Origin: an uncultured Acidobacteriota bacterium
Lineage (GTDB): Bacteria > Acidobacteriota > Thermoanaerobaculia > Multivoradales > JAHEKO01
NCBI GenBank assembly: GCA_963713825.1
Contig: CAVQNG010000035.1
Coordinates: 1-21,934, forward strand
Direction: 5' to 3'
DNA: 21,934 nt
Shown: piece by piece, positions 202 to 18,982 of the stretch
How the letters are laid out: every line of letters begins with the position of its first letter
How positions within the stretch are numbered: position 1 is the first letter of the stretch
Made by a program: the position numbers and the translations under genes
Notes under the pieces: model-generated
The model's input: only the letters and a program-made list of their open reading frames with translations
Told to the model about the DNA's origin: nothing
Database searches by the model: none

Positions 202-1548
202 ATGCCGAGAACGAGCAAGGACCTCACCAAGCGCGAGCTCGATTCCCTCCGCCGCCAAGCCCAGCGAGATCCCGAGTTTCGGGCAATGAGGGCGGACGGA
301 GGGCAGGCAGGCCTGTGTGTCCGGGTCCGTGGCGGCCGCGTCGAGTTCTGGTTCCGGACCCGCCGGCCGGGCGGCAAGCGCGTCATGCGGCGCATCGGCA
401 ACTTCGGCGACCTGACCCTCGATCAGGCTCGGGAGACGGCGCAGGAGTGGCACTGGATCAGGTCCTCGAGGCGCGACGTCGTCCAGGTCCTCGACGAGCG
501 CGAGCGCGAGGCGGTGACGGTAGGGGACATCGTGGACGCGTACCTCCAAGACTTCCGCCAGCGAGTCGAGACCGGTGCCCGCCGAGGCAAGCGCTCGAGT
601 TACACCGAGGCCGAGCGGATGCTCACCAAGCGCGTCGTCCCGAAACTCGGCGGCATGCCGGTGCGGAGCCTCACTGCCGAGCGGGTCCGCGCCCTCCATC
701 GCAGCATGAGCGACACCCCGGGCGCGGCCAATCGCATGCTCACTGCTCTCGGAGCGGCCCTCGCCTTCAGTCAGCGCGAAGGCCTGGTATCTGCCGACTT
801 CAGCAACCCGTGTGGCCACGTCCAGCGATTTCGCGAGGAGGGCCGCCGGCGCTCTCTCACCCGCGAGGAGCTCGGGCGGCTCGGTACTGTCCTGGCCGAT
901 GCGGCGACCTCCGGCAAGGTGGAGGTTGAGGACAAAGCACACAAAGTCCACCCATCCGTCATCCTGACCGTTCGCCTCCTGGCCCTGACCGGCCTCCGCC
1001 GCGGCGAGCTGCTCGGCAGTCCCCACGCCGAGAGAAGGGGAGGTGTTGACGGGCTGCGATGGAAGGACGTTGACCTCGACGCCGGAGTCGTCACGCTCGC
1101 GGATTCCAAGACCGGCTCCCAACGCCGCGTCATCGGCCAGGCCGCCGCCGATCTCCTCCGCGAGGCCAAGCCCAAGTCAGCCCACCCTGACGACTGCGTC
1201 TGCCCAGGCCCCAAGGACCGCCGCAAGCCCTACCGAGCCATCAATAACGCCCGACGCCTCATCTGGAAAGCCGCGGAGCTTCCGCTCGAGCGCGGCTGTG
1301 ATCTGCATTCTTTACGCCACTCCTTCGCCAGCATAGGTGCCCATGTCCACAACGGACGCTACGCGGCCTTTGTCGCCCCGCTGCTGGGCCACGGCTACCA
1401 GAAGCGCTCGATCACAGAGCGCTACATCCACCAGAACCCGGAAGCCCTACAGCCTGCCGCCGACGCTATCGCAGATGCCATCGCACTTCTCCTTGGCCTT
1501 GTCGGAAAGGGCAAAGTCGTTGCGATCACACGCACTGGGTCGGCCTGA
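202..1548 (+). CDS. int: Tyrosine recombinase/integrase with N-terminal arm-binding domain
   Basis: 448 aa. N-terminal GLCVRVR...FWFR...RIGNFGDLTLDQARE arm domain; catalytic GLRRGE (R), SKTG (K), HSLRH, LGH, ERY; RBS ggaagg upstream. Confidence 0.95.
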   Translation: MPRTSKDLTKRELDSLRRQAQRDPEFRAMRADGGQAGLCVRVRGGRVEFWFRTRRPGGKRVMRRIGNFGDLTLDQARETAQEWHWIRSSRRDVVQVLDEREREAVTVGDIVDAYLQDFRQRVETGARRGKRSSYTEAERMLTKRVVPKLGGMPVRSLTAERVRALHRSMSDTPGAANRMLTALGAALAFSQREGLVSADFSNPCGHVQRFREEGRRRSLTREELGRLGTVLADAATSGKVEVEDKAHKVHPSVILTVRLLALTGLRRGELLGSPHAERRGGVDGLRWKDVDLDAGVVTLADSKTGSQRRVIGQAAADLLREAKPKSAHPDDCVCPGPKDRRKPYRAINNARRLIWKAAELPLERGCDLHSLRHSFASIGAHVHNGRYAAFVAPLLGHGYQKRSITERYIHQNPEALQPAADAIADAIALLLGLVGKGKVVAITRTGSA

Positions 1549-2600: not shown

Positions 2601-3661
2601 GTGAATGCTTCCCTACAACGTCTCTTCGTCATTGGCTTGTTAGTGCCCATTGAAGCTCTCGTGGCCGGTGTCTTCAACCTAGGCCCAACCTACCCTGTGG
2701 AAAGTGTCTTGCACCCCATGGGCTATACCGGGCAGCCGGGACAGCTCACCGTTACCGTCTGCATTGACCCGGCTTCACCCTTTGCAGCCCAGGCATCGGC
2801 ACCCCTGGAAAGGGCACTCCAAACTTGGAACGCATTGACAGGGGAAGGGCCGAACCGGGTCACCGGCAGCTCAGAGATTCCCCCAGGATCGGCGGATTTC
2901 GAGTCGGTTGCTCTACATGAGCTTGGTCACTGTGCCATGGGCCTGGGTCACACAAATCTTGGCTCGAGCCTAGATCCTATCCAGGTACTTTTCTACTATC
3001 ACGCCACCAAGTCATTCGAAGGGCCAAACGGAGTCTTCAATTTTGACTCGATTGGGGCGGATGGGTCCTGGGGTACTGGGGACGATCTGCGCGGCGACGA
3101 TATCAACAAGAACTTCTTCAACGTCAGTACCAATGACCCCTTTGCTTTGCCTCTACCTTCTGATATCGACTCCTCAACTTACTCTGTGATTATTGGGAAT
3201 CTGCCCGGTGGGGTACTTTCTCCGCAAACGGATCGTTCGTAGTCGGAGATACCCTCGGCTATCCCGACACGGGAGCCGTGATGTTTGATAGGTATGACGC
3301 CCAGGTCGAAGCTCGGAAACTCGCCGCTGACGATGAAGCAACGGTGCGCTATGGCATGAGTGGACTTGACGAGCATGAGAACTCCCTGGACGACTATACG
3401 ATTCACCTGGAGTTCCTCGATGCTACAGATGTCTGTGATATCCCTATAACGTTCGCTCCTATTCTGCCAAATCCTCCTCTTGTCCTCGGGCGCTGTCTTC
3501 CCCAGGACGAGTTGATCAGTAACAACCACTATCGGTTGACCGATGTCTCGCTAACATTCAATGACGCCGCGCCGTGGTGGTTCGGGGTTTCTCCCGACTT
3601 GATTTTCAGTGACGGCTTCGAGTCCGGCGATACCTCCGCCTGGGACGACACGGTTCCCTAG
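2601..3661 (+). pseudogene. Secreted matrixin-like (metzincin) metalloprotease, split by a 1-bp frameshift
   Basis: Signal peptide; HELGHCAMGLGH zinc motif. Adding one base at GGGG 3210-3213 gives LPGGGTFSANGSFVVGDTLGYPDTGAVM (Met-turn), continuing into ORF 3278-3661, which ends LIFSDGFESGDTSAWDDTVP. Confidence 0.85.
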
Positions 3662-4107: not shown

Positions 4108-4439
4108 CGTCCTACCCGAAAACAGGATCGTGGTGCAATTCAACCTCAGAGAACCGGGTTACGTGAGGGTAGACTTTGCCAATGAGGGCCGACTCTTACC
4201 CCGTAGGATGCCAAAACTCGGCCGATGCAGGCAAGACCGGGCCTAACCTCGACAAGTCGGATCCCTCGGCCGATTTATTGCACCATACGCCGTCCTATCC
4301 GTGAATTCGGGCTTGGGCATCCGGCGATGCTAGCAGCCACTCGTCCCCGGATTTCTGCAACAACGCCACACGAACCTACTTTCGGATAGGACGGGTTTTG
4401 GCGACCGACAGCTAGTCGGCCGAATTCTCGGATAGGACG
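4108..4439. repeat. Repeat unit A copy 2 plus cluster of direct and inverted 24-bp motifs
   Basis: Motif tips at 4108, 4202 and 4291 (+) and 4289, 4393 and 4439 (-); perfect 11-bp inverted pair cgtcctatccg (4291) / cggataggacg (ending 4393 and 4439). Confidence 0.85.
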
Positions 4440-4674
4440 AGAAACGCCGCGTGACCCGCCCTAGGGAGTGGGTTTAGCCACCCGGTCGGGCAGCGGTGGG
4501 AATTCCCAATGGGTAGTTTTGCTCAAGAGGTGTCAGATATCGGAGTGTTCAGGGAACATCATAGTATAAGGAAGGATGCTCGGAATCCACCGTCGAGCTC
4601 GCAGGGTTGCGACAATTGGGTTGCGGGAGCTGGGGGCAGACGATGCACATCCGCGTGAATTCCGGAGATCTAGT

Positions 4675-5385
4675 ATGAGTGACTCGCGCGAGGGGACAAG
4701 GGCTCCCAGAACGGGGACAGATGATGAGCACCTCAGAGGTCTCCGCGCCCTGGAAAAGTATGGGTTTGGGCCACTGGCCCCTATCGGGCAACACCGGGTG
4801 TATGAGGATATGGCCAATGTGTTCACTCAGGGGAAGCAGGCTAACCGATTCTGCATCGTAAGTTGGGGGCGGCTGAAGGTCTGTTTCCAGACCCATGACG
4901 GCCGCTCGTTGACTCTGGGTCTTGTTGGCCCCGGACAAGTGGTCGGCTTCGCAAGCGCTTTGGGGGGGCGGCTTCGGTGAACCTGTGTCGTAGCGCTTCA
5001 GGAGACTGGATGCTTGATCCTGCTCCGGGATCGGTTTCTAGAGTTTCTCTCGAAGGAGCCTCACCTCCTAGGCGATCTCCTGCCCTTGTTGACACGCAAC
5101 CTGGTCGGATGCACTAATTGCCTTGCAGAATCCGGTTGCACCCGGGTGGAAACACGGATCGCTCGCGTGTTCAAAAGCCTCCTGAGGGACCCCGAGGTGG
5201 GCGTTCAGGAGACGGGCCAGATTTCCTTGCGCCTGTCCCGGAGGGAGCTTGCGGACCTGGCCGGAACGACCGTGGAATCCTGCAGCCGGGTAATGAGTAC
5301 ATGGCGACGGAAGCAGATTCTGGTGACAAGCGATGAAGGGTTCCTCATCAAGGACCTATCCGCTATCCAGAGGCTGGGGCAGTAG
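4675..5385 (+). pseudogene. Crp/Fnr-family transcription regulator with in-frame TGA at 4978-4980
   Basis: ORFs 4576-4980 and 5014-5385 share a frame. cNMP-type domain (VFTQG...IVSWGRLKV...GPGQVVG) plus HTH LSRRELADLAGTTVESCSRVM; RBS ggag before ATG 4675; 8 Cys. Confidence 0.85.
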
Positions 5386-5458
5386 CAAGGAGTCAGAGCA
5401 TCCTGACTCAGCCTGCTAGTGCCCCTAGAATCAACATTGGCCATCACATCGGAGCCCT

Positions 5459-5490
5459 TTGACCGCGGTCAACTGGTTGATCGTGGTCAT
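5459..5490. promoter_or_regulatory. Two FNR-type boxes
   Basis: TTGAC-cgcg-GTCAA (5459-5472, perfect palindrome) and TTGAT-cgtg-GTCAT (5477-5490); FNR consensus is TTGAT-N4-ATCAA. Confidence 0.7.
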
Positions 5491-5570
5491 TGTCAGTCGA
5501 TGGCGAGAGTTGTTGAATGTCCTGAGGGGCTCAGAAACTCTGAGTCCTAAGTCATTCAAAGGAGGTGCAG

Positions 5571-6152
5571 ATGCCGATGAAGCTCGTTGTACTTGCGGCG
5601 ATAGGGCTCGTTGCATCCTCTGTTTTGGCTCAAGTAGGGCCTACGACAGTGACCCTCGGCGAGGGCTCGAACAGGGTTGAGTTCAAAGAGGAGCTTTCAG
5701 GACAGCAGATTCCTGAGTATATGGTGGTAGCGCAGTTCTTTCGAACTGCAGCGCTTCTCCGCGAAGCGCCGAATATCGGCTATGAAGTGTTCCTCGGCAG
5801 ATTCGGTATTCAACCAGAAAGTAAATGGGACGGAATCGTAGAGGAGGCGATCCTCGCTGCAAAGCCGATTCTTGAGAGGAAGACAGTCGATTTCTCGCTT
5901 GCAGACGATGAGGCTGCTTTCAGGAGTCACCAGGCTTGGGCCGAAGACGAGAAGGCTCGAGACTTTGCGCACGTATATAGGAAGCTTCTGGCTGATTTGC
6001 GCAAGGCGGACTATCCGATGGGGCAATGGGAGAAGTCTCTGAACGAAAGGGTCCGGGAGAATATGAGCATTCACATGACCGACCCTGAGTCAGATCGTGC
6101 TGCATTGAATCGAGTGGCAGAGGCGTTCGACGAGGAATTGAGGAATAATTGA
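5571..6152 (+). CDS. Secreted hypothetical protein, module partner A1 (paralog of 12058-12657)
   Basis: RBS ggaggt; signal peptide MKLVVLAAIGLVASSVLA; shares LSGxxxPxxMV...F...AA...Y..F...FGI with A2. Confidence 0.85.
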   Translation: MPMKLVVLAAIGLVASSVLAQVGPTTVTLGEGSNRVEFKEELSGQQIPEYMVVAQFFRTAALLREAPNIGYEVFLGRFGIQPESKWDGIVEEAILAAKPILERKTVDFSLADDEAAFRSHQAWAEDEKARDFAHVYRKLLADLRKADYPMGQWEKSLNERVRENMSIHMTDPESDRAALNRVAEAFDEELRNN

Positions 6153-6174
6153 GATGGCGCTGGAGGAGACAACA

Positions 6175-6609
6175 ATGAAGAACTGTATCCTGTTCGTTCT
6201 CATTTTCGTGCTGGGTCTTGTATCGCCAGGCTATGCAACTGATGCCATAGTGTCTGGAGAGGCGTATGGGGCGCAGGATGGTCATTGCACCGCAGCGTTT
6301 GCTGCGGGTCACTCAGTTGAGATGTTTAACATCGATCCAGACCATGAGGACCTGTTCTTTCGGGTAGTCGGAGACATTAACGATTACACACGTAACCGCA
6401 CTATTGGTCCAGGCTGCGGAACAACTGGGGCACTAAACCAGACACAGTCCTTGGCCTGTTTCAGCGAAGGACGGGGTAGATGCGACATGAGGTACCCCAT
6501 GGAGTACGGGGCGTTGAGCGAAGGCGGCATAGTTACTATTGGCGGCAGCGCCTACCACTATGATGCTCAAACCCCTGATTTGCTCATTTGCCATATCTGG
6601 CTGCCCTGA
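6175..6609 (+). CDS. Small secreted Cys-containing protein, module partner B1
   Basis: RBS ggagga; signal peptide ending PGYA; CGT-x11-C-x7-CD plus a near-C-terminal Cys. Confidence 0.85.
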   Translation: MKNCILFVLIFVLGLVSPGYATDAIVSGEAYGAQDGHCTAAFAAGHSVEMFNIDPDHEDLFFRVVGDINDYTRNRTIGPGCGTTGALNQTQSLACFSEGRGRCDMRYPMEYGALSEGGIVTIGGSAYHYDAQTPDLLICHIWLP

Positions 6610-6790
6610 GCACTTTCTCGATGTCCAATCACTTCACCCGCCGGATGAAGTGCATGCCGTAGATGGCGTCGCCATCGCGGAGCAAATCCCTGGTAGTCGT
6701 ATCGTGGGGAAAGGCGTGGATGATCTGCAGAAAGGCGATCTTGGGGTCCTTCGTGTTCTGAGGCCCGACTCTGCAAGAAGGAGGCGAGGG

Positions 6791-6907
6791 CGTCCTATCC
6801 GAAAATAAGATCGTGTTGCAAATCATACTCAGAGAATGGGTTACGTGCGGGTAGGGTTCGCGAATGAGAGCCGATTCGTACCCCGCAGGGTGCCAATGAT
6901 TGACCCA
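6791..6907 (+). repeat. Repeat unit A, copy 3
   Basis: Aligns with 4108-4225 and 1624-1720; lies just past the repA stop codon. Confidence 0.85.
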
Positions 6908-6924
6908 CACCTCACTTGGCCCAG

Positions 6925-8018
6925 TTATCGCACCCGTTGGACTTGGGATCGACCTGCAGCGAGCTGCGTGTGACTGCCCCAATCCCCATTCTGGGTCCGG
7001 GCTTGAACGTGGGGTGGAGAAGGGTAAAGCAGCAGGCCGGCGTCGGTTAGCCGGAGGCGGACAGCGGGGCAGACGCATACGACTTCGCGAAGGCGTGTGC
7101 AGAAACTCCGACGAAAATCCCGAGACCGAGAATAGGCAGCACCAAACTGGTCCTCCAGGGCCTTCCATGGAATCAGGCACGGCCGCCGGAGGTAGCTCAT
7201 CCGGTGAGTGAGCCAGATGTAGATGTCGATTGCCAGCCGAGAGTTCTTCAGGAGTTCGATGGCTCGGAGATCTACGGGTACGGCGGAGCGGGTGATTTCC
7301 TGAAAGAACTGGCGACTGAGGACAAGCTCCGCATTCCAGGTTGGTTTTCGCCATTGGAAGCACGCCTTGAGGAGCTCAAGAGTGGGGTCGCTAGACGTGA
7401 TCAGGCCGCGACCGCTCTCTAGCGTTCGGAAGTCCTTGGAGTATTGCCACTGGAATCGGGTGGAGACGAGGCGCTGAAGTTGGTCGTCAAGTCGCCTGGC
7501 AGTGCCGCGCAGCCCGCTGATCGGCGTAAGACCAAGCCTGCGAGCCAAGTCGTTGGGAGTGCGTCCAAGATCGATCTCGGGGCTCTTCGTACAAACAGCT
7601 TGGGTGGTTAGATAGATGAGGATAAGGCAGGATAGAGACCGTAAGGAAGGCCGATCGAGCGATGCGCGTCGAGGCGCAGGGCGTAGCGTCCATTGGTTCT
7701 TTCGAAGCGACGATCCGTCGGTCGGCTGTGATGAAGGGTCGCGAGGACTAGGATGCGGGGCATGAAGCCGAGGGGCTAGCCGAGGCGGTCTTCGAGAGAC
7801 TCCGCGAAGAGCCTTCGGTCTACCTCCTGCCGGAATACGAAGTCCCTTCTTCTCAGTACGAGGTGCTGGAAGAGTGCCGCCAGAAAGAGCGACTGCCGGT
7901 GGTTTTGAGCGGCGGTTGACCATCTCTTACAGCTGTAGTACGATGGTTCGCCATCGACTTCGACCCGTTTGGGTGTGGCCTTGACAGTTACCGGAAAGGA
8001 GCATCGGACTTGGACCAT
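6925..8018 (-). pseudogene. repA: Plasmid replication initiator RepA (RepA_C family), disrupted
   Basis: Reconstructed LGFMPRILVLATL.HS...FERTNG...GLPYGLYP/RLILIYLTTQAV...FFQEITRSAVPVDLRAI...LAIDIYIWLTHR. TAG at 7776-7778 and a 1-bp frameshift at 7628/7629. Start position uncertain. Confidence 0.85.
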
Positions 8019-8258
8019 CGGATTTCAAAGGCGCATCGCCGGATCGCCACTCGCGACCCGAGTGCACTTCTCAATCAGAGCCAGGCCGCTTCCCTAATCG
8101 GAGTCTCCGAGCGCACGTTGGAGTGCTGGCGCTGGAAGGGTAACGGTCCGGCGTTCGTAAAGATCTCGAGTCGGGCTGTCAGGTATCGGCGCCAGGACAT
8201 CGAGAAGTGGGTGAGCGACCGGATTCAGCGCTCAACGAGTGAAGAGCTGCCCAGGTGA
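8010..8258 (+). CDS. AlpA/excisionase-like helix-turn-helix protein
   Basis: LLNQSQAASLIGVSERTLECWR..G.GPAFVKI..RAVRYRRQDIEKW pattern; overlaps the next gene (GTGA). Confidence 0.9.
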   Translation: MDHRISKAHRRIATRDPSALLNQSQAASLIGVSERTLECWRWKGNGPAFVKISSRAVRYRRQDIEKWVSDRIQRSTSEELPR

Positions 8259-9829
8259 GCGGCTCGCGCCAGCGGCGTTCCCAAACTGATCCCCACTTTT
8301 GGGGTCCACTGAAACTGCCCCATAGCCCCGAGCTCGAACGCGCCGTCCTCGGTGGCCTGCAGCACGCACCCGATGTCGGAACGGCTTTATCGCGCCTTGA
8401 GGCGGACGATTTCGTTTCCGAGTGCCACCGGACCATCCTTCGCGCGATCGAGGCTCTCGCCGCGCAGGGGCGCCGAGCTGACCTACCCCAGCTGATCGAC
8501 ACGCTGGAGCAGGCGGGTGACCTGGTCGATGTTGGGGGACGGGCCTATGTCGCCAAGCTGGATCTCGATCTCGTTCCCTCCAATCTCGGCGGTTACATCG
8601 ACCGCCTGAAAGAGCTCCGCGCCCTCCGCGAAGCTGCGCTCTCGGCCGAGCGCTTCCTCGGTGCGCTGGGAGACTCGGTGCCGGCGAGGATCCCGGACGC
8701 TCTGGCGGCTCTCGAGGCTCAGTTTGGGAACGCTTCGGCTTCCGCTGCCTCAGCCGAGCCCAACCGGTTCAAGCGCCTGGCCGAAGTCAAGCCGGAATCG
8801 GTGGAATTCCTCTGGAAGCCCTACCTGCCTGTGGGGAAGCTCACGCTTCTCGAGGGCGACCCGGGCCAGGGCAAGAGCTACCTCGCGGCAGCGATCGCAG
8901 CTAGCGGGTCGCGCGGCCGCCATCTGCCGGGCTCGACATTCTTCGAGCCCTGGAGCACCCTGATCCTAACCGCGGAGGACGGCCTGGCCGACACTCTTCG
9001 ACCTCGGCTCGACCGGCTAGAAGCCGATGTCGACCGGATCTTCGGCGTCGAAGACCTCTTGGACTTGAGCACGCAGCAGGGCCTCGGCGTCCTCGAGCGA
9101 GCCATCTGCGAGCGGAAGCCACGTCTGGTGGTGATCGATCCTGTGGTCGCCTACGTCGGAGCCAGGACCGATCTCCACCGGGCGAACCAGGTTCGGGCTG
9201 TTCTCGGGCCCCTGGCGCGTCTCGCGGCGAAGACCCGCACGGCGGTCGTGGCGATCCGGCACTTGAACAAGTCCCAGGGCGCCCACTCCCTCTACCGTGG
9301 CCACGGATCGATCGACTTCACCGCGGCGGCCCGGAGCGTGCTCCTTGTCGGCTCGGACCCTGAGGACGCCGAGAGCCGGGTGGTCATTCACCTGAAAAGC
9401 AATCTGGCCCGCGTCGGCCGCTCGCTCGCCTACACGATTCGGCAAGGCGTCTTCGCCTGGTCTGGGTGGAGCCAGCTAACCGCGTGGGATCTCCTCCAGG
9501 ACGACCGGACCGCCGAGGAACGCACGGCAATCGGGGAGGCCAAGGACTTTCTGGTGGAGCTTCTCGCCGATGGACCGCAGGCCTCGAAGGACGTGCTCCA
9601 GGGGGCGAAGGCGGCCGGGGTGTCGGAGAAGACCCTCAGGCGAGCCAAGAGCCAGCTCAAGGTCAAGGTAAGGAAGACCGGGTTTCAGGGCACTTGGTGC
9701 TGGGCTCTCCCGGGCGCTGAGAGCTCGAAGGTGGCCACGGGACCCAAAGATGGCCAAGGAGGCCATAGGGGTACCTTTGGCCATCTTTGGGAAGACGGTG
9801 CGAGAACGGATGAAAATCGGCCCGGGTAG
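8255..9829 (+). CDS. DnaB N-terminal domain fused to RecA/AAA_25-type ATPase (element helicase)
   Basis: PHSPELERAVLG...DF...HRTI (DnaB_N); Walker A GDPGQGKS; Walker B LVVID; IRHLNK and GSIDF motifs. Confidence 0.88.
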   Translation: MSGSRQRRSQTDPHFWGPLKLPHSPELERAVLGGLQHAPDVGTALSRLEADDFVSECHRTILRAIEALAAQGRRADLPQLIDTLEQAGDLVDVGGRAYVAKLDLDLVPSNLGGYIDRLKELRALREAALSAERFLGALGDSVPARIPDALAALEAQFGNASASAASAEPNRFKRLAEVKPESVEFLWKPYLPVGKLTLLEGDPGQGKSYLAAAIAASGSRGRHLPGSTFFEPWSTLILTAEDGLADTLRPRLDRLEADVDRIFGVEDLLDLSTQQGLGVLERAICERKPRLVVIDPVVAYVGARTDLHRANQVRAVLGPLARLAAKTRTAVVAIRHLNKSQGAHSLYRGHGSIDFTAAARSVLLVGSDPEDAESRVVIHLKSNLARVGRSLAYTIRQGVFAWSGWSQLTAWDLLQDDRTAEERTAIGEAKDFLVELLADGPQASKDVLQGAKAAGVSEKTLRRAKSQLKVKVRKTGFQGTWCWALPGAESSKVATGPKDGQGGHRGTFGHLWEDGARTDENRPG

Positions 9830-10069
9830 CGAGGTTCGGTGGAGTGGGCGGGTGGTGGTCGCTGGGATGCCCGATGAAGGGTAACCCGGCTCGACGTGAA
9901 ATGAGCGGAACGGAAGACAGCGAGACTACGTAGTAAGACGCGTCATGTCGCCATGCAGAGGAGAGACCTGAATTGAGGAATCCGATGGTGGCGGTCTCCC
10001 CCAATCGGGAGATGCTTGGGTTGGCAAGACAACGACCCGGGCATCGAGCCCGAAAGGAGGAACACCGCC

Positions 10070-11107
10070 ATGGAACGATACATCGGTGTCGACGTCCACC
10101 GCGACAGCTCGACGATCTGTGTGCTGAGCGCTACCGGCAAGCGCGTGACCCAGGAGGTCGTGGCCACCAACGGGCATGCCCTGGTCAGCTCGGTGGGCAA
10201 GCTGCGGGGAACGCTGCACATTTGCATCGAAGAGAGTACCTGGAGCGAATGGCTCTACGAGATCCTCTCGCCACATGCGGCCCAGCTGGTGGTCTACCAG
10301 AACGAGTGGTCACCGGGAGCCAAGAGCGATGCAATCGATGCGCACGGCCTGGCCGAGAAGCTGCGCATCGGCCTGGCCGGACCCGGAGTGTTCAAGTCCC
10401 CAAGACGTTTCCGGCAGCTACGCGAGTGGGCCCGTGTCTATCGTGTGATGACTCAGGATGTCGCGCGGACCAAGAATCGGCTCAAGAGCCACCTGCGCCG
10501 CCGTGGGATTCACTGCTCAGGGAACAGCGTCTACGATCCCCAGCACCGAGACCCGTGGCTGGAGCAGTTGCCCGCGGCGATGCGAGCGCCGGCGAGACTC
10601 CTCGGACTCGAGCTCGACTCCGTGACCGCGCTGAGAGCCGAGGCCGAGCGGGCTCTGGTCAAGGAGTCGCACACGTATCGGATCTCGAGGGTGCTGGAGA
10701 CGGCTCCGGGCATCGGACCGATCCGGGCGGCGATGCTGATCGCGACCGTCATCACGCCGCACCGGTTTCGCAGCAAACGGCAATTCTGGAGCTACTGCGG
10801 TTTCGGAGTCGTCACGCGCAGCTCGGCCGACTGGGTGCAGACCGAAAGCGGCTGGATCAAGGCCCAGGCCGTCCAGACTCGAGGGCTCAATCGCAACCAC
10901 AATCCGACGCTCAAGGCGATCTTCAAGGGCGCGGCCATTACAGCCATTCATCAGACCAAGGCCGGTCATCCCTTGAAAGAGGCTTACAACCGGCTCCTGG
11001 AGGCCGGCACTCGCCCGCCCTTGGCCAGGCTGACGATTGCACGCAAGATCGCCGCAACCGTACTGGCCATGTGGAAGAACGAGGAGGTCTACCGAGCCAT
11101 GACCTAG
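10070..11107 (+). CDS. IS110-family transposase/recombinase
   Basis: DEDD RuvC-like domain (YIGVDVH, IEES, KSDAIDA); C-terminal PGIGP...RF...YCG...RSS; RBS aggagg. Confidence 0.95.
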   Translation: MERYIGVDVHRDSSTICVLSATGKRVTQEVVATNGHALVSSVGKLRGTLHICIEESTWSEWLYEILSPHAAQLVVYQNEWSPGAKSDAIDAHGLAEKLRIGLAGPGVFKSPRRFRQLREWARVYRVMTQDVARTKNRLKSHLRRRGIHCSGNSVYDPQHRDPWLEQLPAAMRAPARLLGLELDSVTALRAEAERALVKESHTYRISRVLETAPGIGPIRAAMLIATVITPHRFRSKRQFWSYCGFGVVTRSSADWVQTESGWIKAQAVQTRGLNRNHNPTLKAIFKGAAITAIHQTKAGHPLKEAYNRLLEAGTRPPLARLTIARKIAATVLAMWKNEEVYRAMT

Positions 11108-11194
11108 GCGCCCGACTCCCGACCGGAACGGACCGACAACCGCGACCGGCGGAGGCGGGCCTGGTGTCGAGGCGCCAAACGGCTCTCCGGCAAA

Positions 11195-11350
11195 AGGATT
11201 CGAGGGACAGCATCGACGCATTGCATGGCCCAGGACAAACCGTCCAAGGCACTCCAGCGAGACTATGCACCCTCACCGAACCGAACGAAGAGATGGCCCA
11301 CGAGGCCCGAATGCGAGCATGGTTCATCTGCCGCGAGACCAGAACAAAAC
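11195..11350 (+). ncRNA. Putative IS110 bridge/seek RNA in the 3' non-coding end
   Basis: Long non-coding end after tnp. Stem gaggg..gcat (11202-11213) / atgc.ccctc (11265-11274) encloses an internal loop and a ggac/gtcc hairpin. IS110 elements are known to encode such RNAs; limits are approximate. Confidence 0.5.
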
Positions 11351-11497
11351 TGTCTTCCAAGCCGGCGAGGCGATGGAGCCCGCCACGACCACCAACCCGA
11401 GCTCCCGGTAGCGATCCAGGTCCGTCGTCCACCCTGACGCTCGAAGTCCAGCGCCTCGAGCACACAGGATGGGTGTGGACAGCACTTCGCTTCCTAT

Positions 11498-11548
11498 GCG
11501 AGCAATGCTTTCGTAATACGCGACTCCGTCACGCATTCGAAAGCGCTC
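11498..11548. promoter_or_regulatory. oriT-like inverted repeat upstream of mobC
   Basis: gctttcg(t)aat ... attcgaaagc stem (11507-11544), about 60 bp before mobC; no clear nic site seen. Confidence 0.4.
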
Positions 11549-11606
11549 AGCCTTTTCGCACCGCTCCGCGGTGCTCAAGAGGCCCACTCAATGCGCATGG
11601 CTGCCC

Positions 11607-11915
11607 ATGAAGAAGGTACGCCAGCCTCGCTTCACTCTTGTGAAACCAGTCCGCTTTGCTCCCGAGGAGTGGGAGAAGATTCAAGTCCGCGCCTCTGAGG
11701 TTCGGCTACCACCCAGCACCTATGTCCGCCAGACGTCTCTGGGGTACCGTCTATCCGGGCGAATCAACGCGAGAGCCATCTGCGAGCTGGGCCGGATCGG
11801 CAACAACCTCAACCAGCTCGCGAGGCTCGCCAACACAACCGGCCGACTCGAACACAGCCAGCAACTCGAAGCCGTCCTCGACGAGCTCCTCGATGCCATA
11901 AGGCGCCTGGCCTGA
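11607..11915 (+). CDS. mobC: MobC relaxosome accessory protein (ribbon-helix-helix)
   Basis: VRF..EE...I..RA.......STYVR plus the signature ELGRIGNNLNQLAR; no relaxase follows. Confidence 0.9.
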   Translation: MKKVRQPRFTLVKPVRFAPEEWEKIQVRASEVRLPPSTYVRQTSLGYRLSGRINARAICELGRIGNNLNQLARLANTTGRLEHSQQLEAVLDELLDAIRRLA

Positions 11916-11918
11916 AGC
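11820..11918 (+). repeat. 99-bp direct repeat, copy 1 (mobC 3' end)
   Basis: 95/99 identical to 13151-13249. Confidence 0.95.
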
Positions 11919-11985
11919 GCGGGATCGTCCATCCAACTACCGAAGAAGGCAACTCTCACTGCTCGTCGTCACAGCTCTGTTTACC

Positions 11986-12014
11986 TTGCAGTTTGACCGG
12001 TCCTACACCATAAT
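11986..12014 (+). promoter_or_regulatory. Putative sigma70 promoter for module 2
   Basis: TTGCAG-17 bp-CATAAT upstream of RBS gggagg and ATG 12058. Confidence 0.45.
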
Positions 12015-12057
12015 TGCTACCAAGCACTTAGGACGCTTTGAAGGGAGGCTGCTGGTT

Positions 12058-12657
12058 ATGGCCAAATCTCGATTGAGAGCGCCACTGTTCCTAATCGCCG
12101 CGCTGATGGCCCAGTCGTCACCCAGCGCTCAGGCGAGTCCTCCAGAGCACTACTCGCTCAGCGGACGAGATGCTCCAACTTTCATGGTGCTGGGGAGCTT
12201 CATTAGCCTAGCAGCCGCTGCCTACCTGGCCGACGATCCGGAGCACTACACCGAATTCTGCGCGGAATTCGGCATCAAGTCAGAGTGGCCATCTGCCCGC
12301 AGTCTGGGCACGGCCTACCTGTTCATCGATGAGGAGTACAGGGTGCGGGTGGCGCAGGCCAACCAGACCTCCACATTCTCAGATTTCGAAGGTCGAGACC
12401 CAAATGAGTGGAAGAATGAGGCTCTGGGTCGGTCCTTTGGAGAGCTCTTCGAGGAGCTGCGGAGCGATGGCCTCAGGCGCGATCTAGAGGGATTCATCAT
12501 CTTGCTCGAGGCCCGACTTCGCGATGGCTTCACGGCATACAGCACCAACCCCTTCATTGAAGCGGATCTGTCCGACAAGGCCGACAAGTTCTGGACTGCA
12601 ATGGAAGGAGCAAGCGAGCAAGCACGAGAATACCGACTGGAAGGAGTGGAGCAGTGA
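12058..12657 (+). CDS. Secreted hypothetical protein, module partner A2 (paralog of 5571-6152)
   Basis: RBS gggagg; signal peptide ending SAQA; colinear similarity to A1. Confidence 0.85.
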   Translation: MAKSRLRAPLFLIAALMAQSSPSAQASPPEHYSLSGRDAPTFMVLGSFISLAAAAYLADDPEHYTEFCAEFGIKSEWPSARSLGTAYLFIDEEYRVRVAQANQTSTFSDFEGRDPNEWKNEALGRSFGELFEELRSDGLRRDLEGFIILLEARLRDGFTAYSTNPFIEADLSDKADKFWTAMEGASEQAREYRLEGVEQ

Positions 12658-13079
12658 GTCGACTATCAGTCTTTGGATTGATCGCCTTGCTGGCGATAAT
12701 CGGGGCTTCGCCTGTGGGGGCGCTGTCCTGGCAGGTCCAGTCTTTCGTCTTCGCCAGCGAGAAGCCTACGGGTCCCAACTCGTCGAAGGTCAACGCCAGG
12801 GGAACGCACCGACTCTCGATCGACACGGATCCCGGCGACTCAGGCAACGCCAACATCGTGAGGAGTGGTACGGAGCTACTCCAGGACTCGGACGAAATGG
12901 ACGACTGCGGGACATCGCTGCAGAGCTACCCCGCAACGACGTTTCATCAATGCACTACCGAGTACACCCAAGATCCGTGCGAGGACGCATCTTGGACCGC
13001 TGTGACAAAGGCCTGGATAAACGGCTCTACCGACACCGAATCGTCTGTTCCGAAGGATGTGACCTGCACCTGCACCTAG
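12654..13079 (+). CDS. Small secreted Cys-containing protein, module partner B2
   Basis: GTGA overlap with A2; signal peptide ending PVGA; CGT-x12-C-x8-CE and terminal CTCT. Confidence 0.85.
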   Translation: MSRLSVFGLIALLAIIGASPVGALSWQVQSFVFASEKPTGPNSSKVNARGTHRLSIDTDPGDSGNANIVRSGTELLQDSDEMDDCGTSLQSYPATTFHQCTTEYTQDPCEDASWTAVTKAWINGSTDTESSVPKDVTCTCT

Positions 13080-13150
13080 TCGCTGGATGGCAGTCTCAGG
13101 ACTGCACTGGTGATGGCGGAAGATCCGTCTATCTGGGAGGCACCTAACTG

Positions 13151-13249
13151 GCGAGGCTCGCCAACTCAACCGGCCGTCTCGAACACAGCCAGCAACTCGA
13201 AGCCGTCCTCGACGAGCTCCTTGATGCCATAAGACGCCTGGCCTGAAGC
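13151..13249 (+). repeat. 99-bp direct repeat, copy 2 (mobC 3' fragment)
   Basis: 95/99 identical to 11820-11918; includes the mobC stop codon. Confidence 0.95.
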
Positions 13250-13302
13250 TCGCAATCAGCTGCCCAGCACCTGCACCTCGCTCGACTCCACCTAAGGTTC
13301 CG

Positions 13303-13587
13303 CTAGCTCCCTTTCCTCGGTTGCTCGAGCCTCAGGTATTCCTCGAATACGCGGGAGATCGCTGCACTTCTCGAGGTCACGCTCAGCTTTCTGTAGAGCC
13401 GTTTGATGTGACTGTGAACGGTGTGCCGCGAGATCCCAATCTCTCTCGCGGTCCCTTTCTCTGTCCTTTTGTTGAGGAGACCACGGACAATCTCTTCTTC
13501 CCTCGGCGACAACCTGAGTCGCTGTGAGAGAAGTGACCAGACCCCATCCGACAAGAGCCGGTGCTTCCTACCAGGATCACCAGACAT
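13303..13587 (-). CDS. Stand-alone LuxR/GerE-type HTH regulator
   Basis: LSPREEEIV...TEKGTAREIGISRHTVHSHIKRLYRKLSVTSR; RBS aggag before ATG 13587; no receiver domain. Confidence 0.9.
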   Translation of the reverse strand: MSGDPGRKHRLLSDGVWSLLSQRLRLSPREEEIVRGLLNKRTEKGTAREIGISRHTVHSHIKRLYRKLSVTSRSAAISRVFEEYLRLEQPRKGS

Positions 13588-13850
13588 GCTGCTTTGTCTC
13601 CTGGGGGACCCAAACGTTACAGCTGATCTCCTCAGTCGGGGTTTCAGCTTGCCGGCGCCGGCCATGCGCGGGGGCGATCTCGGTCTCCTGGTCGGAGCTC
13701 GCGACCCTTCGATTCAGCGGGCCCTCACTATCAAAGTTGTCGCAGAAACCCGATCTCTGACGCAACTCTCACAGATCCGCCTATGCCCATGCGTTCACTT
13801 CACGGCTGGGCCGTGCGCCGTGGGCGTCAAGCGAAGCTCGATCTTGGTGT

Positions 13851-13895
13851 CCCCTAAATAGGTGACACCTAATTAGGTGACGCCTAAATAGGGGA
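13851..13895. promoter_or_regulatory. Three tandem 15-bp palindromic boxes (CCTAAWTAGG core)
   Basis: cccctaaataggtga / cacctaattaggtga / cgcctaaatagggga, between the divergent luxR and rhs genes. Confidence 0.75.
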
Positions 13896-14179: not shown

Positions 14180-17100
14180 ATGACACGTTCCGCTTGCTCG
14201 AGGCTCACGAACAGAACACCTGCCGCTGCGCGAAAGCTGCTATTCCGACTTGCTGGAATTTGCCTCCTTCTGATCATTCCTGCTCGCCTGATCGCGCAAG
14301 TCTGTTCCCCGGAGGTCGGCTACAACATTGATCTCGCAGTCCGACCGGGGGCAATTTTTGAGGAGGAAAACTGTAGCCAGTACAGCATCTACTCACACTG
14401 CTATGAGGGCGAATTCTCGGCCCTACGTTACGAGGTCATTCCCTCCGAGTGCAATCCGGAAGATGAGACCTGTAGCGTCCGCGCTGTTCAGTCGATCGAT
14501 CTTCCTGGTCTCAGCCAGAACGACTTCGAGCCCTGCTGCACGCCAGCCCTGATCTTCTGGGAGAGCTCCGCAGGCGCAACCGTGGCTCGGTGCGGCTTTC
14601 AGTATGCGCAGATCCGTGACGATCTCGTGGACGCAAGAATCACAGGAGGTGGATTCAGCTGCTCTGAACCCGACGAGCTCGTCACCGCCGACACCTATAC
14701 GATCACAGCGATCACATGCCCGGAGGACGCATTTGGGTGCGACAAGACCGTCGAGACTTCGCTACCGTTCACAGGCGCGGCCGTAGCTGCGGCACTCTGT
14801 CCTCCACCGCCTCCCAAAGACGAGTGCTCCGACTGTGAAACTTGTCCTGCCGGGGACAGCGGCACAAGCGTTGCGGGCGGTGGTCCGAGTTTGACCCCGG
14901 ATCAGAGTGGCCCTGGCGCAACACTTCGCTATCGCGCTGGTGGCGTGGGACACCAGGGCTATCCCGGCTCGACAGAATGGACCAGCGCACTCGGCCGGTA
15001 CTGGTCCCATGACTACGCAGAGCGGATCGTTCCGGATCCCCAAACAGGTGACGAGACTCACGTATGGCTGATTACCAAGCATGGGAGCTTTCGAGAATTC
15101 CAGGACTTGGGAGTGGGCAATACCTATGACACCAACTCCCCCAGCGATGAGTATCGAACCCTCGAATGGCTGGGAGCTGGTCTTGGATGGGAGCTTCACG
15201 ACCTCGACGGCACCGTCCAGTCCTTCGACTCCAGTGGCCACTGGACTCAGACAGTTGACCGAAATGGAAACGCAACTGAGGCCCACTACGACGCCTTCGA
15301 TAGGCTCGAGTGGGTCGGCTTTCCTGACGAGCGGCGCGAGGATTTCACGTATCACACGAGTGGCAAGCTCGAGTCCATCACCGAGGTGGGAGTCGACGGC
15401 ACGACGATGCGTACCTGGCTCTACACGTGGGTGAGTGATGATCTGACGCGAATCGAGCGACCCGACGGCACCGCACTCGAGCTCTTCTACGAGGACCCGT
15501 CATTCCCAAGCTACCTGACGCGGATGGAACTTGTCGGTACATCTGGAGGACGCCGGATCGAGCGCGCCTGGAGCTACGATGGCGAGGGAAACGTCGAGAA
15601 AACCTGGCGCGGCGCCTTGAACTTCACCGACGAGGATGCCGTGGACCAGTGGAGCTTGGCATTCGACAATCCACAGTTCCCGACGGTCACTGAGCTCACC
15701 GATCCGCTCGGCGGTACTGCCACCTATACCCTGGAGCGGGACACAGCGAGCCTCAAGGCCAAGGTCATGACGATCTCCGGAGACTGCCCCTCTTGCAGTC
15801 TGGGCCCCAACTCACAGCTCTTCTATGAGGATCCAGATCATCCCCTGCTGGTTACCCGCAAGATCGACGGCAAGGGGAACGAGACCCACTTCACCTACAC
15901 GACCGAGGGTCAGGTGGAATCCAAGACGGAGGCGTTCGGCACCGCACTCCTCCGCACGACGGACTGGCAGTACGATTCCAACTTCCCGGCTCTTGTGACG
16001 CTCATCCGGGTTCCCTCCACTTCCGGCTCGAGCTACCGTGAGACGGCGATGAGCTATGACCCAGTCACCGGAGACATGGATTGGATGGAAGTCCGGGGTT
16101 TCGAGGAGCTCGACGGCCAGCCTCCCCTGGACTTCTTCGCGAACCGGACCCTTTACGACTACAACGATGCAGGCAGGTCGCTGACGATCGATCCGCCGGG
16201 TTTCGATCCCGCGCCTCCTGGTTTCGACACTGACGAGGTTGTCTTCACCTACGATTCCGACCGCGGGGACTTGATTCCAGAGACGCGAGCCGATCCCGAG
16301 GTCGGGATCACGTCGTTCGGCTACGATCCCTTCAATCGACGCACGGAAGTCACCGACCCCAACGGAGTCACCACGAAGACGACCTACGATGACCTCAATC
16401 GGGTGACCTCGGTCATTCAGGGCTTCGGCTCTGGCGACGAGTTGGTGACGAGCCACACGTACACCCAGTTCGGGGATCTCTTTCGTACCACTCTTCCCAG
16501 AGGCAACCTCATCGAGTACGGCTACGATGCCACCGGCCGCTTGGAGTCGATCGAGCGCAAGCCCGACGCCACGACCCCGGGTGAGAGGACCTTCTGGATC
16601 GTCGATAACGCTGGCAACCGGACGACGGAGAAGCTCCAGTCCTGGTCCGGCACCTGGCAGACTCAGTCCGAAACCGACTACCAGTACACATCGCGGTGTC
16701 AACTCGACAAGGTCATCCGCGCTCCGGGGACCGCCGAAGAGAGCGTGACGGAGTATGCCTACGACTGTAACGGCAACCTCGAGCAGGTCTGGGACGCGAA
16801 TCACCCCTCCGCCGGTCAGTCCGCGCCGGCCACTCAAACCTATTCCTACGACGAGCTGAACCGACTGAAATCTGTAACCCAGCCCTGGGAGGGTGGCGGA
16901 GACGCGACTACCACCTATGGCTACGACGTCCAAGACCACTTGACCTCGGCAACGGATGCGGAAGGCAACCTCACGACCTACACCTACAGCGACCGGGATC
17001 TTCTGACCAAGGAGATCTCGCCGGCATCCGGCACCACGACCTACACCTACAACGAGCATGGCGAGCTCCTGACCGAGACCGACCCACGAGGCATCACGAT

Positions 17101-18982
17101 CACCCGGACCGTCGACGCGCTCGACCGGCTCATGACTGTGACCTATCCCACAGACACTGACCTCGACACGACGTTTACTTATGATGAGAACCTGGGAGAT
17201 GTCTCAAACATTGCCATCGGGAGACTCGTGAAGATCGAGCGTGGCAGCCAGCCGCCGGTTGTCTACCACTGGGACCAGTTTGGGCGAAGGACCCGAGACG
17301 GCGAGCTGGGGTATGGGTACGACGACAACGGCAACCGCACCTCGATTGCCTACCCCGGCAGCAGCGTTGTGACCTATACCCACGACTTTGCCGATCGGCC
17401 GAGGTCTCTCGAGGTCCAGATCGGGGAGAGCACGTCCCAGACCCTCGTGAGCGACGCCAGCTATGGCCCCAGCGGCCCCCTGACTGGCTTGACCTTCGGC
17501 AACGGTCTAAGCGAGACACGGACGTTCGACGGGCGGTATTATCCCGATGCCGTGCAGGTCTCCGACCCCAGCACGCTGCTCAGTTGGGACTACACTGTCG
17601 ACAAGGTGGGCAACGTGACTTCCATCGCCGACGGCCTCAACAGCTCCAACGACCGCAGCTTCGGCTATGCCCCCGTCCATTACTTCCTCGAGTGTGCCGC
17701 GGGACCCTGGAGTCCTCTCGGTTCGAGCTGTGACCCTGTAACGGAGAGTCCACGGCTCTGGGAGTACGACAGGATCGGCAATCGGACGAGGGCCGAGAAT
17801 CTCCCCACCATGGGACCCGATGAGACCTACCTCTACGAGCCGAGCTCGGGCTCCGGGAACTCGCCCCTGCTCGATGCCATCGATCCGGATCCGGTGGACG
17901 GCACCCGCTACTACTACACCTTCGACGCCTCCGGCAACCTCACCCAGGTGGATCGGAGCGGCAATGTCATCGACTTCACCTGGGATGAAGCGGGGCGACT
18001 CCAACGGGCCGAGCGCACTGCGGCGGATGAGGCCGTAACCTTCACCTACGATGGCCGCTCCTTCCTGAGCCTGGCCGCCGAGGATGCGGACCCACCGCCC
18101 CCGGAAAGCCTTCCCTTCAGCGATGGCTTCGAGAGTGGGGACCTTTCGGCATGGTCTTCCTGTGTCGGTGGACCTGGCTGTGGCACGACCGTGCGCAGTG
18201 TCGTGCCCACCTACAGCTCTGAAGGTCTGCTCTACGCCTTGGGAGACGAGAGCGGCTACGCGGAAGTGTTCTACTTCGCAGGGAGACCCGTAGCCCAGGT
18301 CGACACAGCAGGGCCTGATCCAGAGTGGACCGTTTTGACCACGGATCACCTGGGGACTCCGATCTTTGCGGCAGATCTCGATGGAATCGAGCTCTGGCAG
18401 GGCGGATTCGAGCCCTTCGGTGAGGACTACGCGGATGCTCAAGGGATGGGGATCTTCCTGCGCCTGCCCGGTCAGTGGGAGGATTCCGTCTGGCAGGCCG
18501 CCATCGACGGGGCACCGCTCTACTACAACGTTCACCGCTGGTATGAGTACGGAACGGGGAGGTATACGAGGGTGGATCCGACCGGCCTATTGCCAGACCT
18601 GGACCTCCTACAGTATCCGGCAACCCGACAGGCGCCGCGCAGCCAATTCACTTGGGCCTTGGAGAATGTGGTTCACCCCTATGGGTACGCTCGCGAGAGC
18701 CCACTCGTATACCTCGATGTCAACGGCGCCAATCCACTCAAGTACCTTGATCCCAGATGTATCTTCTGGGGAATTGTCTGCATTAAGAGCTCTACTAACT
18801 GCAGGGAACGCTGGGAGTGCATCTTCCGCGAAAACCCGGAGGCGGCGCCAACCTATTTCCAAGAGGTGGGCGTGAGCAGCTTCTCAGGGTTCTACTTTGA
18901 GGTCTGCCTCAATATTCCATCCTGCAGGAAGGCCCTCCGATACTGCGGGAAGGTGCCGGGGCTCCCCAAGCCGACGAGGTAG
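14180..18982 (+). CDS. rhs: Rhs/YD-repeat polymorphic toxin with N-terminal signal peptide
   Basis: 1600 aa; RBS aggagg; signal peptide; Cys-rich N-domain; many YD repeats; core DHLGTP, LRLPGQ, YYNVHRWY...GRYTRVDP; short Cys-rich C-terminal tip. Confidence 0.95.
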   Translation: MTRSACSRLTNRTPAAARKLLFRLAGICLLLIIPARLIAQVCSPEVGYNIDLAVRPGAIFEEENCSQYSIYSHCYEGEFSALRYEVIPSECNPEDETCSVRAVQSIDLPGLSQNDFEPCCTPALIFWESSAGATVARCGFQYAQIRDDLVDARITGGGFSCSEPDELVTADTYTITAITCPEDAFGCDKTVETSLPFTGAAVAAALCPPPPPKDECSDCETCPAGDSGTSVAGGGPSLTPDQSGPGATLRYRAGGVGHQGYPGSTEWTSALGRYWSHDYAERIVPDPQTGDETHVWLITKHGSFREFQDLGVGNTYDTNSPSDEYRTLEWLGAGLGWELHDLDGTVQSFDSSGHWTQTVDRNGNATEAHYDAFDRLEWVGFPDERREDFTYHTSGKLESITEVGVDGTTMRTWLYTWVSDDLTRIERPDGTALELFYEDPSFPSYLTRMELVGTSGGRRIERAWSYDGEGNVEKTWRGALNFTDEDAVDQWSLAFDNPQFPTVTELTDPLGGTATYTLERDTASLKAKVMTISGDCPSCSLGPNSQLFYEDPDHPLLVTRKIDGKGNETHFTYTTEGQVESKTEAFGTALLRTTDWQYDSNFPALVTLIRVPSTSGSSYRETAMSYDPVTGDMDWMEVRGFEELDGQPPLDFFANRTLYDYNDAGRSLTIDPPGFDPAPPGFDTDEVVFTYDSDRGDLIPETRADPEVGITSFGYDPFNRRTEVTDPNGVTTKTTYDDLNRVTSVIQGFGSGDELVTSHTYTQFGDLFRTTLPRGNLIEYGYDATGRLESIERKPDATTPGERTFWIVDNAGNRTTEKLQSWSGTWQTQSETDYQYTSRCQLDKVIRAPGTAEESVTEYAYDCNGNLEQVWDANHPSAGQSAPATQTYSYDELNRLKSVTQPWEGGGDATTTYGYDVQDHLTSATDAEGNLTTYTYSDRDLLTKEISPASGTTTYTYNEHGELLTETDPRGITITRTVDALDRLMTVTYPTDTDLDTTFTYDENLGDVSNIAIGRLVKIERGSQPPVVYHWDQFGRRTRDGELGYGYDDNGNRTSIAYPGSSVVTYTHDFADRPRSLEVQIGESTSQTLVSDASYGPSGPLTGLTFGNGLSETRTFDGRYYPDAVQVSDPSTLLSWDYTVDKVGNVTSIADGLNSSNDRSFGYAPVHYFLECAAGPWSPLGSSCDPVTESPRLWEYDRIGNRTRAENLPTMGPDETYLYEPSSGSGNSPLLDAIDPDPVDGTRYYYTFDASGNLTQVDRSGNVIDFTWDEAGRLQRAERTAADEAVTFTYDGRSFLSLAAEDADPPPPESLPFSDGFESGDLSAWSSCVGGPGCGTTVRSVVPTYSSEGLLYALGDESGYAEVFYFAGRPVAQVDTAGPDPEWTVLTTDHLGTPIFAADLDGIELWQGGFEPFGEDYADAQGMGIFLRLPGQWEDSVWQAAIDGAPLYYNVHRWYEYGTGRYTRVDPTGLLPDLDLLQYPATRQAPRSQFTWALENVVHPYGYARESPLVYLDVNGANPLKYLDPRCIFWGIVCIKSSTNCRERWECIFRENPEAAPTYFQEVGVSSFSGFYFEVCLNIPSCRKALRYCGKVPGLPKPTR
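18533..18580 (+). repeat. 48-bp Rhs core repeat (copies at 19476-19523 and 20475-20522)
   Basis: Encodes HRWYE.GTGRYTRVDP; each orphan copy is 43/48 identical to this one. Confidence 0.95.

Follow-up and report, generated by a model that had tools for sequence, protein, structure and literature searches.

The window, the whole 21,934-base stretch of DNA analysed here, is one entire contig within a 5.4-Mb Acidobacteriota genome and carries two pairs of genes for small exported proteins, A1–B1 and A2–B2. By sequence comparison, A1 and A2 are true but deeply diverged homologues belonging to one uncatalogued family; in the A2 clade of this family, the A gene is followed by the gene of a cysteine-rich partner, B2, which is predicted to have an immunoglobulin-like (Ig-like) fold. 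Both pairs are cargo on an integrative or plasmid-like mobilisable element. The favoured reading, to which a probability of roughly 40% is given, sees A as a binder of B, periplasmic or extracellular, and the two together as an accessory, horizontally moving module.

The A family and its predicted structure

A1 and A2 align by BLASTP with 26% identity over 137 residues (E = 1e-4), and the profiles of the A1 and A2 groups, two small groups, align by hhalign over 128 columns with E = 3.3e-4. The Smith–Waterman score of the mature proteins is 82, compared with 31.7 ± 5.8 for shuffled sequences (Z = 8.7); 0 of 1000 shuffles reached 82. The homology claimed in the initial annotation, which had proposed a profile alignment as its check, is thereby confirmed. 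When 1.84 billion representative proteins were searched with a profile of A1, A2 and close relatives of both, 99 representatives matched with E ≤ 1e-3, 22 of these with E ≤ 1e-10; 94 of the 99 representatives are 168–243 residues long. Both proteins match a 55-sequence family profile as full-length members (E = 1.6e-55 for A1 and 6.9e-52 for A2).

Among the 55 aligned members there was no convincing Pfam match (two unrelated single hits had E about 0.005), and there were 0 matches to NCBIfam. The family profile retrieved only designed helical repeats from the PDB sequences, and nothing was found for A2 in the ESM Atlas.

The AlphaFold2 model obtained from the 55-sequence alignment has a predicted local distance difference test score (pLDDT) of 92.4 and a predicted template modelling score (pTM) of 0.81. 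Past the signal peptide, the predicted architecture comprises six helices and two short strands pairing residues 42–45 with 168–171, in agreement with the earlier description of A as a conserved helical protein. A Foldseek search of the model against PDB gave no match at E ≤ 1e-3 (best E = 0.39). Exhaustive alignment to 48,161 chains gave a best Z of 5.4 (CnrXs), with three chains at Z ≥ 5 and 0 reaching 8; these values are below the noise level stated by the tool for helical models. The conserved columns of the family are those of the hydrophobic core together with G46, P50, G81, G149, R164 and P174. Conserved polar positions are few (R164, Q123, E160 and K130), as would suit a binding protein better than an enzyme; the conserved columns contain no catalytic-looking constellation, and His, Cys or Met ligands are not conserved.

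In a maximum-likelihood tree of 40 A members, the A2 clade (13 rows, support 100/99) is separate from a larger clade holding A1. All of 12 A2-clade sequences have the same single Cys (Cys68 in A2). In the genomes searched, the family is confined to Acidobacteriota; across the phylum sample, its profile is present in 6 of 401 genomes. For A1's own subclade, no match turned up in the species-representative genome collection or the viral collection, each of which was scanned twice.

Some family members are fused to other sequences. A protein of genome G414 (L015:1147-2178, minus strand) has a C-terminal extension of ~110 residues and a protein of genome G795 (L027:907-2049, plus strand) has an N-terminal domain of ~190 residues, both without a Pfam match. 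In P0101, a protein of 3257 residues, eight separate stretches match A-profile positions 17–60 (E = 4.5e-4); these may represent a repeat of the A N-terminal motif or a composition effect.

Partner genes and their linkage to A

The four open reading frames (ORFs) are real, have good ribosome-binding sites and lie where the initial annotation had placed them (Table 1). The A1 ORF spans 5565–6152 and its likely start is ATG 5571, behind AAGGAGG; the likely start of A2, ATG 12058, stands behind GGGAGG. The B1 ORF opens at 6154, with ATG 6175, behind GGAGGAG, as the better start; from there B1 begins 22 nucleotides (nt) past the A1 stop, behind a strong ribosome-binding site of its own. The B2 start overlaps the A2 stop by 4 nt. 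A hydrophobic, signal-peptide-like stretch is found at the N-terminus of all four proteins, as judged by eye.

A profile of three B2-like proteins retrieved 17 proteins, 14 of which have 138–152 residues and the three others 116, 117 and 141; the three members with a source taxon name are all from Acidobacteriota. Residues C100, C109, C138 and C140 are invariant and C85 is nearly so, the C terminus reads C-x-C-[TSN], and H52, E36, R49 and R70 are invariant as well. B2 itself matches the 148-position family profile with E = 8.1e-51 and has all five of these Cys. The B2 model (pLDDT 71.9, pTM 0.60) suggests a sandwich of about eight strands, and its structural matches include ICAM-5 (Z = 10.0), the MspA rim (Z = 9.3, Foldseek template modelling score 0.55), RbmA (Z = 8.8) and SoxZ (Z = 7.7). 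The predicted sandwich is shared with Ig-like and fibronectin-III-like domains such as those of the MspA rim, RbmA, SoxZ and ApaG. However, this is a generic fold, sequence identity is 8–13% and no family hidden Markov model matches; the five conserved Cys with the C-terminal CxC[TSN] set the B2 family apart from other Ig-like sandwiches. The B2 family had no match in the family libraries or in a PDB sequence search. Against Pfam DUF4789, B2 scores 16.8 bits (E = 0.01), short of the gathering cut-off of 27 bits, and 3 of the 17 family members match this model, at E ≥ 0.01. PADLOC models of anti-phage defence gave 0 matches for the six proteins scanned.

The initial annotation had recognised neither family, and the Pfam, NCBIfam and PADLOC scans likewise gave neither protein a catalogued family. 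A keyword literature search on the pair returned nothing relevant. As far as keywords and family libraries reach, the literature not being searchable by sequence, the pair is unplaced in any known family or system; it is new in the sense of being unplaced and not in the sense of a new mechanism.

Genomic context was available for eight A2-clade loci and nine other A loci. A full B2 gene overlapping the A stop by 4 nt is present at six of the eight A2-clade loci (the window, G217, G010 and three metagenome contigs). At one of the remaining loci the contig ends 45 codons into a B2-like ORF; at the other, on a 1.26-kb contig, ~23 codons of a B2-like start are followed by unrelated sequence. Of 401 genomes of the class, three (G000, G010 and G217) are hit by the A profile, and the B2 profile hits exactly these three. 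The ORFs flanking the pair are not the same at the G217 locus as at the G010-type loci, and they are encoded on the opposite strand, so the pair has the look of a self-contained operon. In the initial annotation, each pair was placed beside its own regulator. The Crp/Fnr-type and LuxR/GerE-type genes are indeed nearby, but they do not appear to be part of the module: the G217, G010 and metagenome loci have other flanking ORFs; the LuxR/GerE-type regulator is missing from the related A2–B2 loci.

Outside the A2 clade, a small Cys-rich exported ORF follows three of nine A genes, and the three ORFs differ in sequence type. Besides A1–B1, such an arrangement occurs on contig 82 of G515, where the A gene (E = 1.8e-12 against the family profile) is separated by 18 nt from a 145-residue exported ORF with five mature Cys, and in G775, where a 161-residue exported ORF with nine mature Cys follows with a 4-nt overlap and the A protein matches the N-terminal 69 columns of the profile only (E = 5e-8). 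These two further A genes, L018 (+18 nt) and L028 (4-nt overlap), have the longest branches in the tree. No two of the four B types resemble each other in sequence (pairwise Z from −1.6 to 1.4). Thus, the expectation that A homologues are consistently accompanied by a small Cys-rich secreted ORF holds for the A2 clade, where the two incomplete loci also preserve B2-like starts, and fails elsewhere.

B1 could not be related to B2. BLASTP gave no alignment at E ≤ 100; the Smith–Waterman score was 22, compared with 26.5 ± 4.7 for shuffles, 894 of 1000 of which reached 22; in an hhalign comparison of B1 with the 17-sequence B2 profile only the signal peptides aligned (probability 2%). Homology of B1 and B2 is not confirmed by these comparisons. 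The claim of a two-gene module present twice is consequently upheld for the A copies, which are homologous, and not for the B copies. B1 and B2 have in common their size, five mature Cys and similar positions for four of them. The Cys lie at mature positions 17, 60, 74, 82 and 118 of 123 in B1 and 62, 77, 86, 115 and 117 of 118 in B2; four of five agree to within ±4 residues, a result obtained with 1.0% of random placements and with 9% if the offset is left free. Of the Cys pattern proposed earlier for both proteins, the five mature Cys are present in each, the spacing agrees only roughly (p ~0.01–0.09) and the CGT element is variable inside the B2 family. No relative of B1 was found in its own genome, the ESM Atlas gave nothing usable (a 0.76 feature hit and a model with pLDDT 0.33), and PHROGs gave one weak match (E = 0.039). 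PDB sequence searches with both the A and B2 families and with B1 yielded composition-level or chance matches only.

The rates of substitution show that purifying selection acts on both A and B. Between the window and the sibling element L021, the ratio of nonsynonymous to synonymous substitution rates (dN/dS) is 0.28 for A2 and 0.42 for B2; the closer pair of G010 and a metagenome variant gives 0.18 (A) and 0.29 (B). One value of 1.17 comes from nine changes only. B evolves somewhat faster than A, identities of 98% and 56% for A being paired with 89% and 46% for B. Between L010 and L022 (A 1837-2445, B 2442-2888), synonymous divergence is three times as high in B (0.176) as in A (0.061), which suggests recombination or allele exchange inside the pair.

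Metatranscriptome contigs from two libraries in two studies are identical to the window at 5812–6049, 6027–6320, 5080–5679 and 6152–6553; the contig at 6027–6320 bridges the A1 stop and the B1 start. They provide weak evidence of A1–B1 transcription. The RNA-library contigs do not cover 11916–13217, where A2–B2 lies, which says nothing about silence of that pair.

The mobilisable element and its repeats

The contig carries genes for an integrase, RepA, MobC and an RHS protein, among others (Table 1), and is therefore assigned to an integrative or plasmid-like mobilisable element. Near-identical DNA for 5400–13200 is found in 20 public runs from eight studies, and the labelled ones are salt-marsh or sediment metagenomes. 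The close homologues of A2 and B2 are labelled by their sources as proteins of Thermoanaerobaculia or Acidobacteriota metagenome-assembled genomes.

Table 1. Positions of the A and B genes, repeats and neighbouring genes in the window
Feature	Position	Strand	Basis
Tyrosine integrase with arm-binding domain	202-1548		Pfam/NCBIfam
Metzincin-type zinc-protease motif protein, signal-peptide-like N-terminus	2601-3242		Pfam/NCBIfam; signal by eye
~95-nt repeat, left of the Crp–A1–B1 block	4113..4202	+	
Crp/Fnr-type regulator gene, in-frame stop at 4978-4980; A1 neighbour	4576-5385	+	Pfam/NCBIfam
A1, exported helical protein of the A family, ~170 mature residues, no Cys	5571..6152	+	
B1, small exported protein, 5 mature Cys	6175..6609	+	
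~95-nt repeat, right of the Crp–A1–B1 block	6791..6884	+	
RepA_C	6925-7923	minus	Pfam/NCBIfam
DnaB-N/AAA_25 helicase	8255-9829		Pfam/NCBIfam
MobC/NikA	11571-11915		Pfam/NCBIfam
Left 117-nt direct repeat, real mobC 3′ end	11810..11926	+	
A2, exported helical protein of the A2 clade; carries the single Cys conserved in that clade (FC.EFGI)	12058..12657	+	
B2, exported protein, predicted Ig-like beta-sandwich, 5 conserved Cys, C-terminal CxC	12654..13079	+	
Right 117-nt direct repeat, an orphan mobC 3′ end just past B2; 91% identical to the left copy	13141..13257	+	
LuxR/GerE-type regulator, neighbour of A2–B2	13303-13665	minus	Pfam/NCBIfam
RHS protein, 1600 residues, then two orphan RHS C-terminal modules	14180-18982		Pfam/NCBIfam

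Both pairs lie between repeats, as the initial annotation had it. Each copy flanking A2–B2 is made up of the ~105 nt at the mobC 3′ end and a few further bases. The sibling element L021 has mobC–A2–B2 without the second mobC-end copy, and its similarity to the window stops at 13137, just past B2. Taken together with the mobC-end copies, this indicates that a block of ~1.2 kb was placed or recombined here as a unit, and the cassette-like travel envisaged earlier thus finds support in A2–B2 as a discrete movable unit. An integron cassette was considered and rejected: the integrase has a P4-type arm-binding domain, and the repeats flanking A2–B2 are a duplicated gene end and not attC-like.

The ~95-nt repeat that flanks the Crp–A1–B1 block has a third copy at 1622–1716, and its copies delimit two cargo blocks. 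The repeat holds the inverted motif CGTCCTATCC / GGATAGGACG, further copies of which occur at 4283–4440. In the Crp/Fnr-type gene upstream of A1, the stop at 4978–4980 splits the cyclic-nucleotide-binding half from the helix–turn–helix half; this gene is probably a pseudogene.

In other parts of the element, ORF 2601–3242 carries the HELGHCAMGLGH metzincin motif and is followed by ORF 3278–3661. Positions 3611–3643 alone are common to many contigs of other organisms, with both ends loose, which suggests a short widespread peptide motif near the C terminus of ORF 3278–3661. The ~1.6 kb at 9925–11552 are missing from L021, where the helicase gene runs directly into mobC; in the window, this segment holds most of a 545-residue ORF (9973–11610) with strong AT skew and no family match. 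Between the LuxR region and the RHS gene, at 13850–13895, there is a palindrome whose overlapping 27-nt arms are 85% complementary. A 56-nt repeat occurs three times (18531–18586, 19474–19529 and 20473–20528). ORFs 19515–20036 and 20514–21014 start within its second and third copies and open with a match to the final 29 positions of the Rhs-associated core model; two orphan C-terminal cassettes thus trail the RHS gene. Each of these cassettes has a small ORF downstream.

Possible roles of the A–B pair

According to the favoured reading, A, a predicted Sec-exported, all-helical protein, would serve as a non-enzymatic binding partner, holder or adaptor. In the A2 clade, its gene is translationally coupled to that of a B2-family partner, an exported protein predicted to be Ig-like and disulfide-bonded, and the two products would form a roughly 1:1 complex in the periplasm or outside the cell, with B as the exchangeable working part. 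An unpaired Cys near the C terminus of B could be linked covalently to the single Cys of the A2-clade A protein, or else to another B molecule or some envelope component. A1–B1 would have the same arrangement, with a partner unrelated in sequence to B2. The pair would be accessory cargo moving horizontally, carried by the mobilisable element here and found at unrelated chromosomal sites in relatives. In favour of this reading stand the size of the A family and its confident helical model, the scarcity of conserved polar positions, the coupling and co-occurrence of A and B2 in the A2 clade, the parallel divergence of A and B, the purifying selection on both, the Cys features of A2-clade A proteins and of the B types, the further Cys-rich partners of L018 and L028 and the hint of A1–B1 transcription.

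Several points weigh against this reading. B1 has no detectable relative, so the A1–B1 pairing rests on one locus and on adjacency. Six of the nine A genes outside the A2 clade (G714, G515 contig 20, G414, G735, G803 and G795) lack a Cys-rich partner, which implies that A can work alone; two of these six loci encode fusions of the A domain with a further domain that has no Pfam match. A1 contains no Cys, and a covalent A–B link therefore cannot be general. The four B types have odd numbers of mature Cys (5, 5, 5 and 9), with the last Cys 0–5 residues from the C terminus, and these counts depend on cleavage sites chosen by eye. The B2 model is of only moderate confidence (pLDDT 71.9). The correlation of A and B identities (r = 0.98 in 15 pairwise comparisons of six pairs) is expected from linkage alone and partly reflects plain shared descent. 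The RNA evidence is weak: RNA-library contigs lie elsewhere on the element as well, at low depth, and carry-over of DNA is possible.

An alternative is that A2–B2 alone is a module, with A1 and B1 as mere neighbours, B1 an unrelated orphan secreted protein or a poorly conserved ORF, and its Cys likeness to B2 a matter of chance. The lack of B1/B2 similarity by any sequence method, the Cys coincidence of p = 0.09 with a free offset, the failure to find B1 relatives in its own genome or anything usable in the ESM Atlas and the solo state of most non-A2 A genes all point in this direction. This explanation is nonetheless considered unlikely, since B1 lies 22 nt past the A1 stop behind a strong ribosome-binding site, an RNA-library contig spans the A1–B1 junction, and two other non-A2 A genes are trailed by Cys-rich exported ORFs of similar size. 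The chances are similarly low for an exported effector with a cognate immunity or neutralising protein, in which a helical membrane-active A or a disulfide-locked B would harm competitors or the producer's own envelope, the partner would bind and block the harmful protein in the producer's periplasm, and conflict would keep the pair polymorphic. The same close coupling of two genes, patchy and mobile distribution and exchange of partners characterise the toxin–immunity pairs of RHS, contact-dependent inhibition and type VI secretion systems. The 4-nt overlap, the occurrence in 3/401 genomes of the class and 6/401 of the phylum, the replacement of partners by unrelated sequences, with A clades tracking B types, and the position on a mobile element next to an RHS toxin, whose locus with its orphan toxin cassettes lies 1 kb downstream of A2–B2, speak for such a pair. 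Unlike those systems, however, both A and B have their own signal peptide and no delivery domain attached, and family-library scans matched neither to a toxin or immunity family or a recognised domain of that kind. A also has no conserved catalytic-type residues. The six solo A genes, solo genes being common, would have to be unprotected toxins or orphan immunities, and diversifying selection is not seen, dN/dS being 0.2–0.4 except for the lone value of 1.17.

The least probable of the explanations considered is a periplasmic stress, metal or redox module, with A as a sensor or holdase resembling CpxP, Spy, ZraP or CnrX and B as a Cys/His sandwich carrying metal or sulfur through its C-terminal CxC. 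Those proteins are, like A, small, Sec-exported, all-alpha and non-enzymatic, and the three top-ranked bacterial periplasmic fold matches of the A model are CnrXs (2y39; Z = 5.4, root-mean-square deviation 3.6, 94 aligned residues), ZraP (3lay; Z = 4.9) and CpxP (3itf; Z = 4.2), although all three values are below the noise level for helical models. On the side of B2, the invariant H52, E36, R49 and R70, the C-terminal CxC and the presence of SoxZ among the sandwich matches would suit a carrier. A differs from these proteins, however, in being longer and in its two short predicted strands, which would clamp the N- and C-terminal parts together; 0 of the 55 A members match the corresponding Pfam models (E ≤ 0.01), the conserved metal ligands are absent, and the failure of B types to be conserved across A clades would be odd for a chemical function. 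LTXXQ is the signature of the CpxP/Spy/ZraP/CnrX family. Chaperone–usher and type IV pilus subunits were rejected: neither the sequences nor the models contain a pointer to such subunits, and the window shows no genes for an usher or for pilus assembly. Nothing found favours a fibre. It is also rather improbable, though less so than a stress or metal module, that the A/B pairs constitute a new polymorphic Sec-exported two-component envelope system of Acidobacteriota, in which a conserved helical partner with a fold unseen in PDB would be matched to interchangeable disulfide-locked Ig-like partners bearing an unpaired C-terminal Cys, the unit moving as a ~1.2-kb cassette and having a part in surface variation or in conflict between microbes.

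Soils and sediments harbour abundant Acidobacteriota; these bacteria are hardly cultured, and their accessory envelope biology is almost blank. The A family offers a confidently modelled helical protein without a clear structural relative. Together with its strictly linked, predicted Ig-like partner, it makes a small, tractable exported pair of ~170 + 120 residues. If partner exchange is true, the pair would be a compact example of the modular evolution of a secreted complex on mobile DNA.

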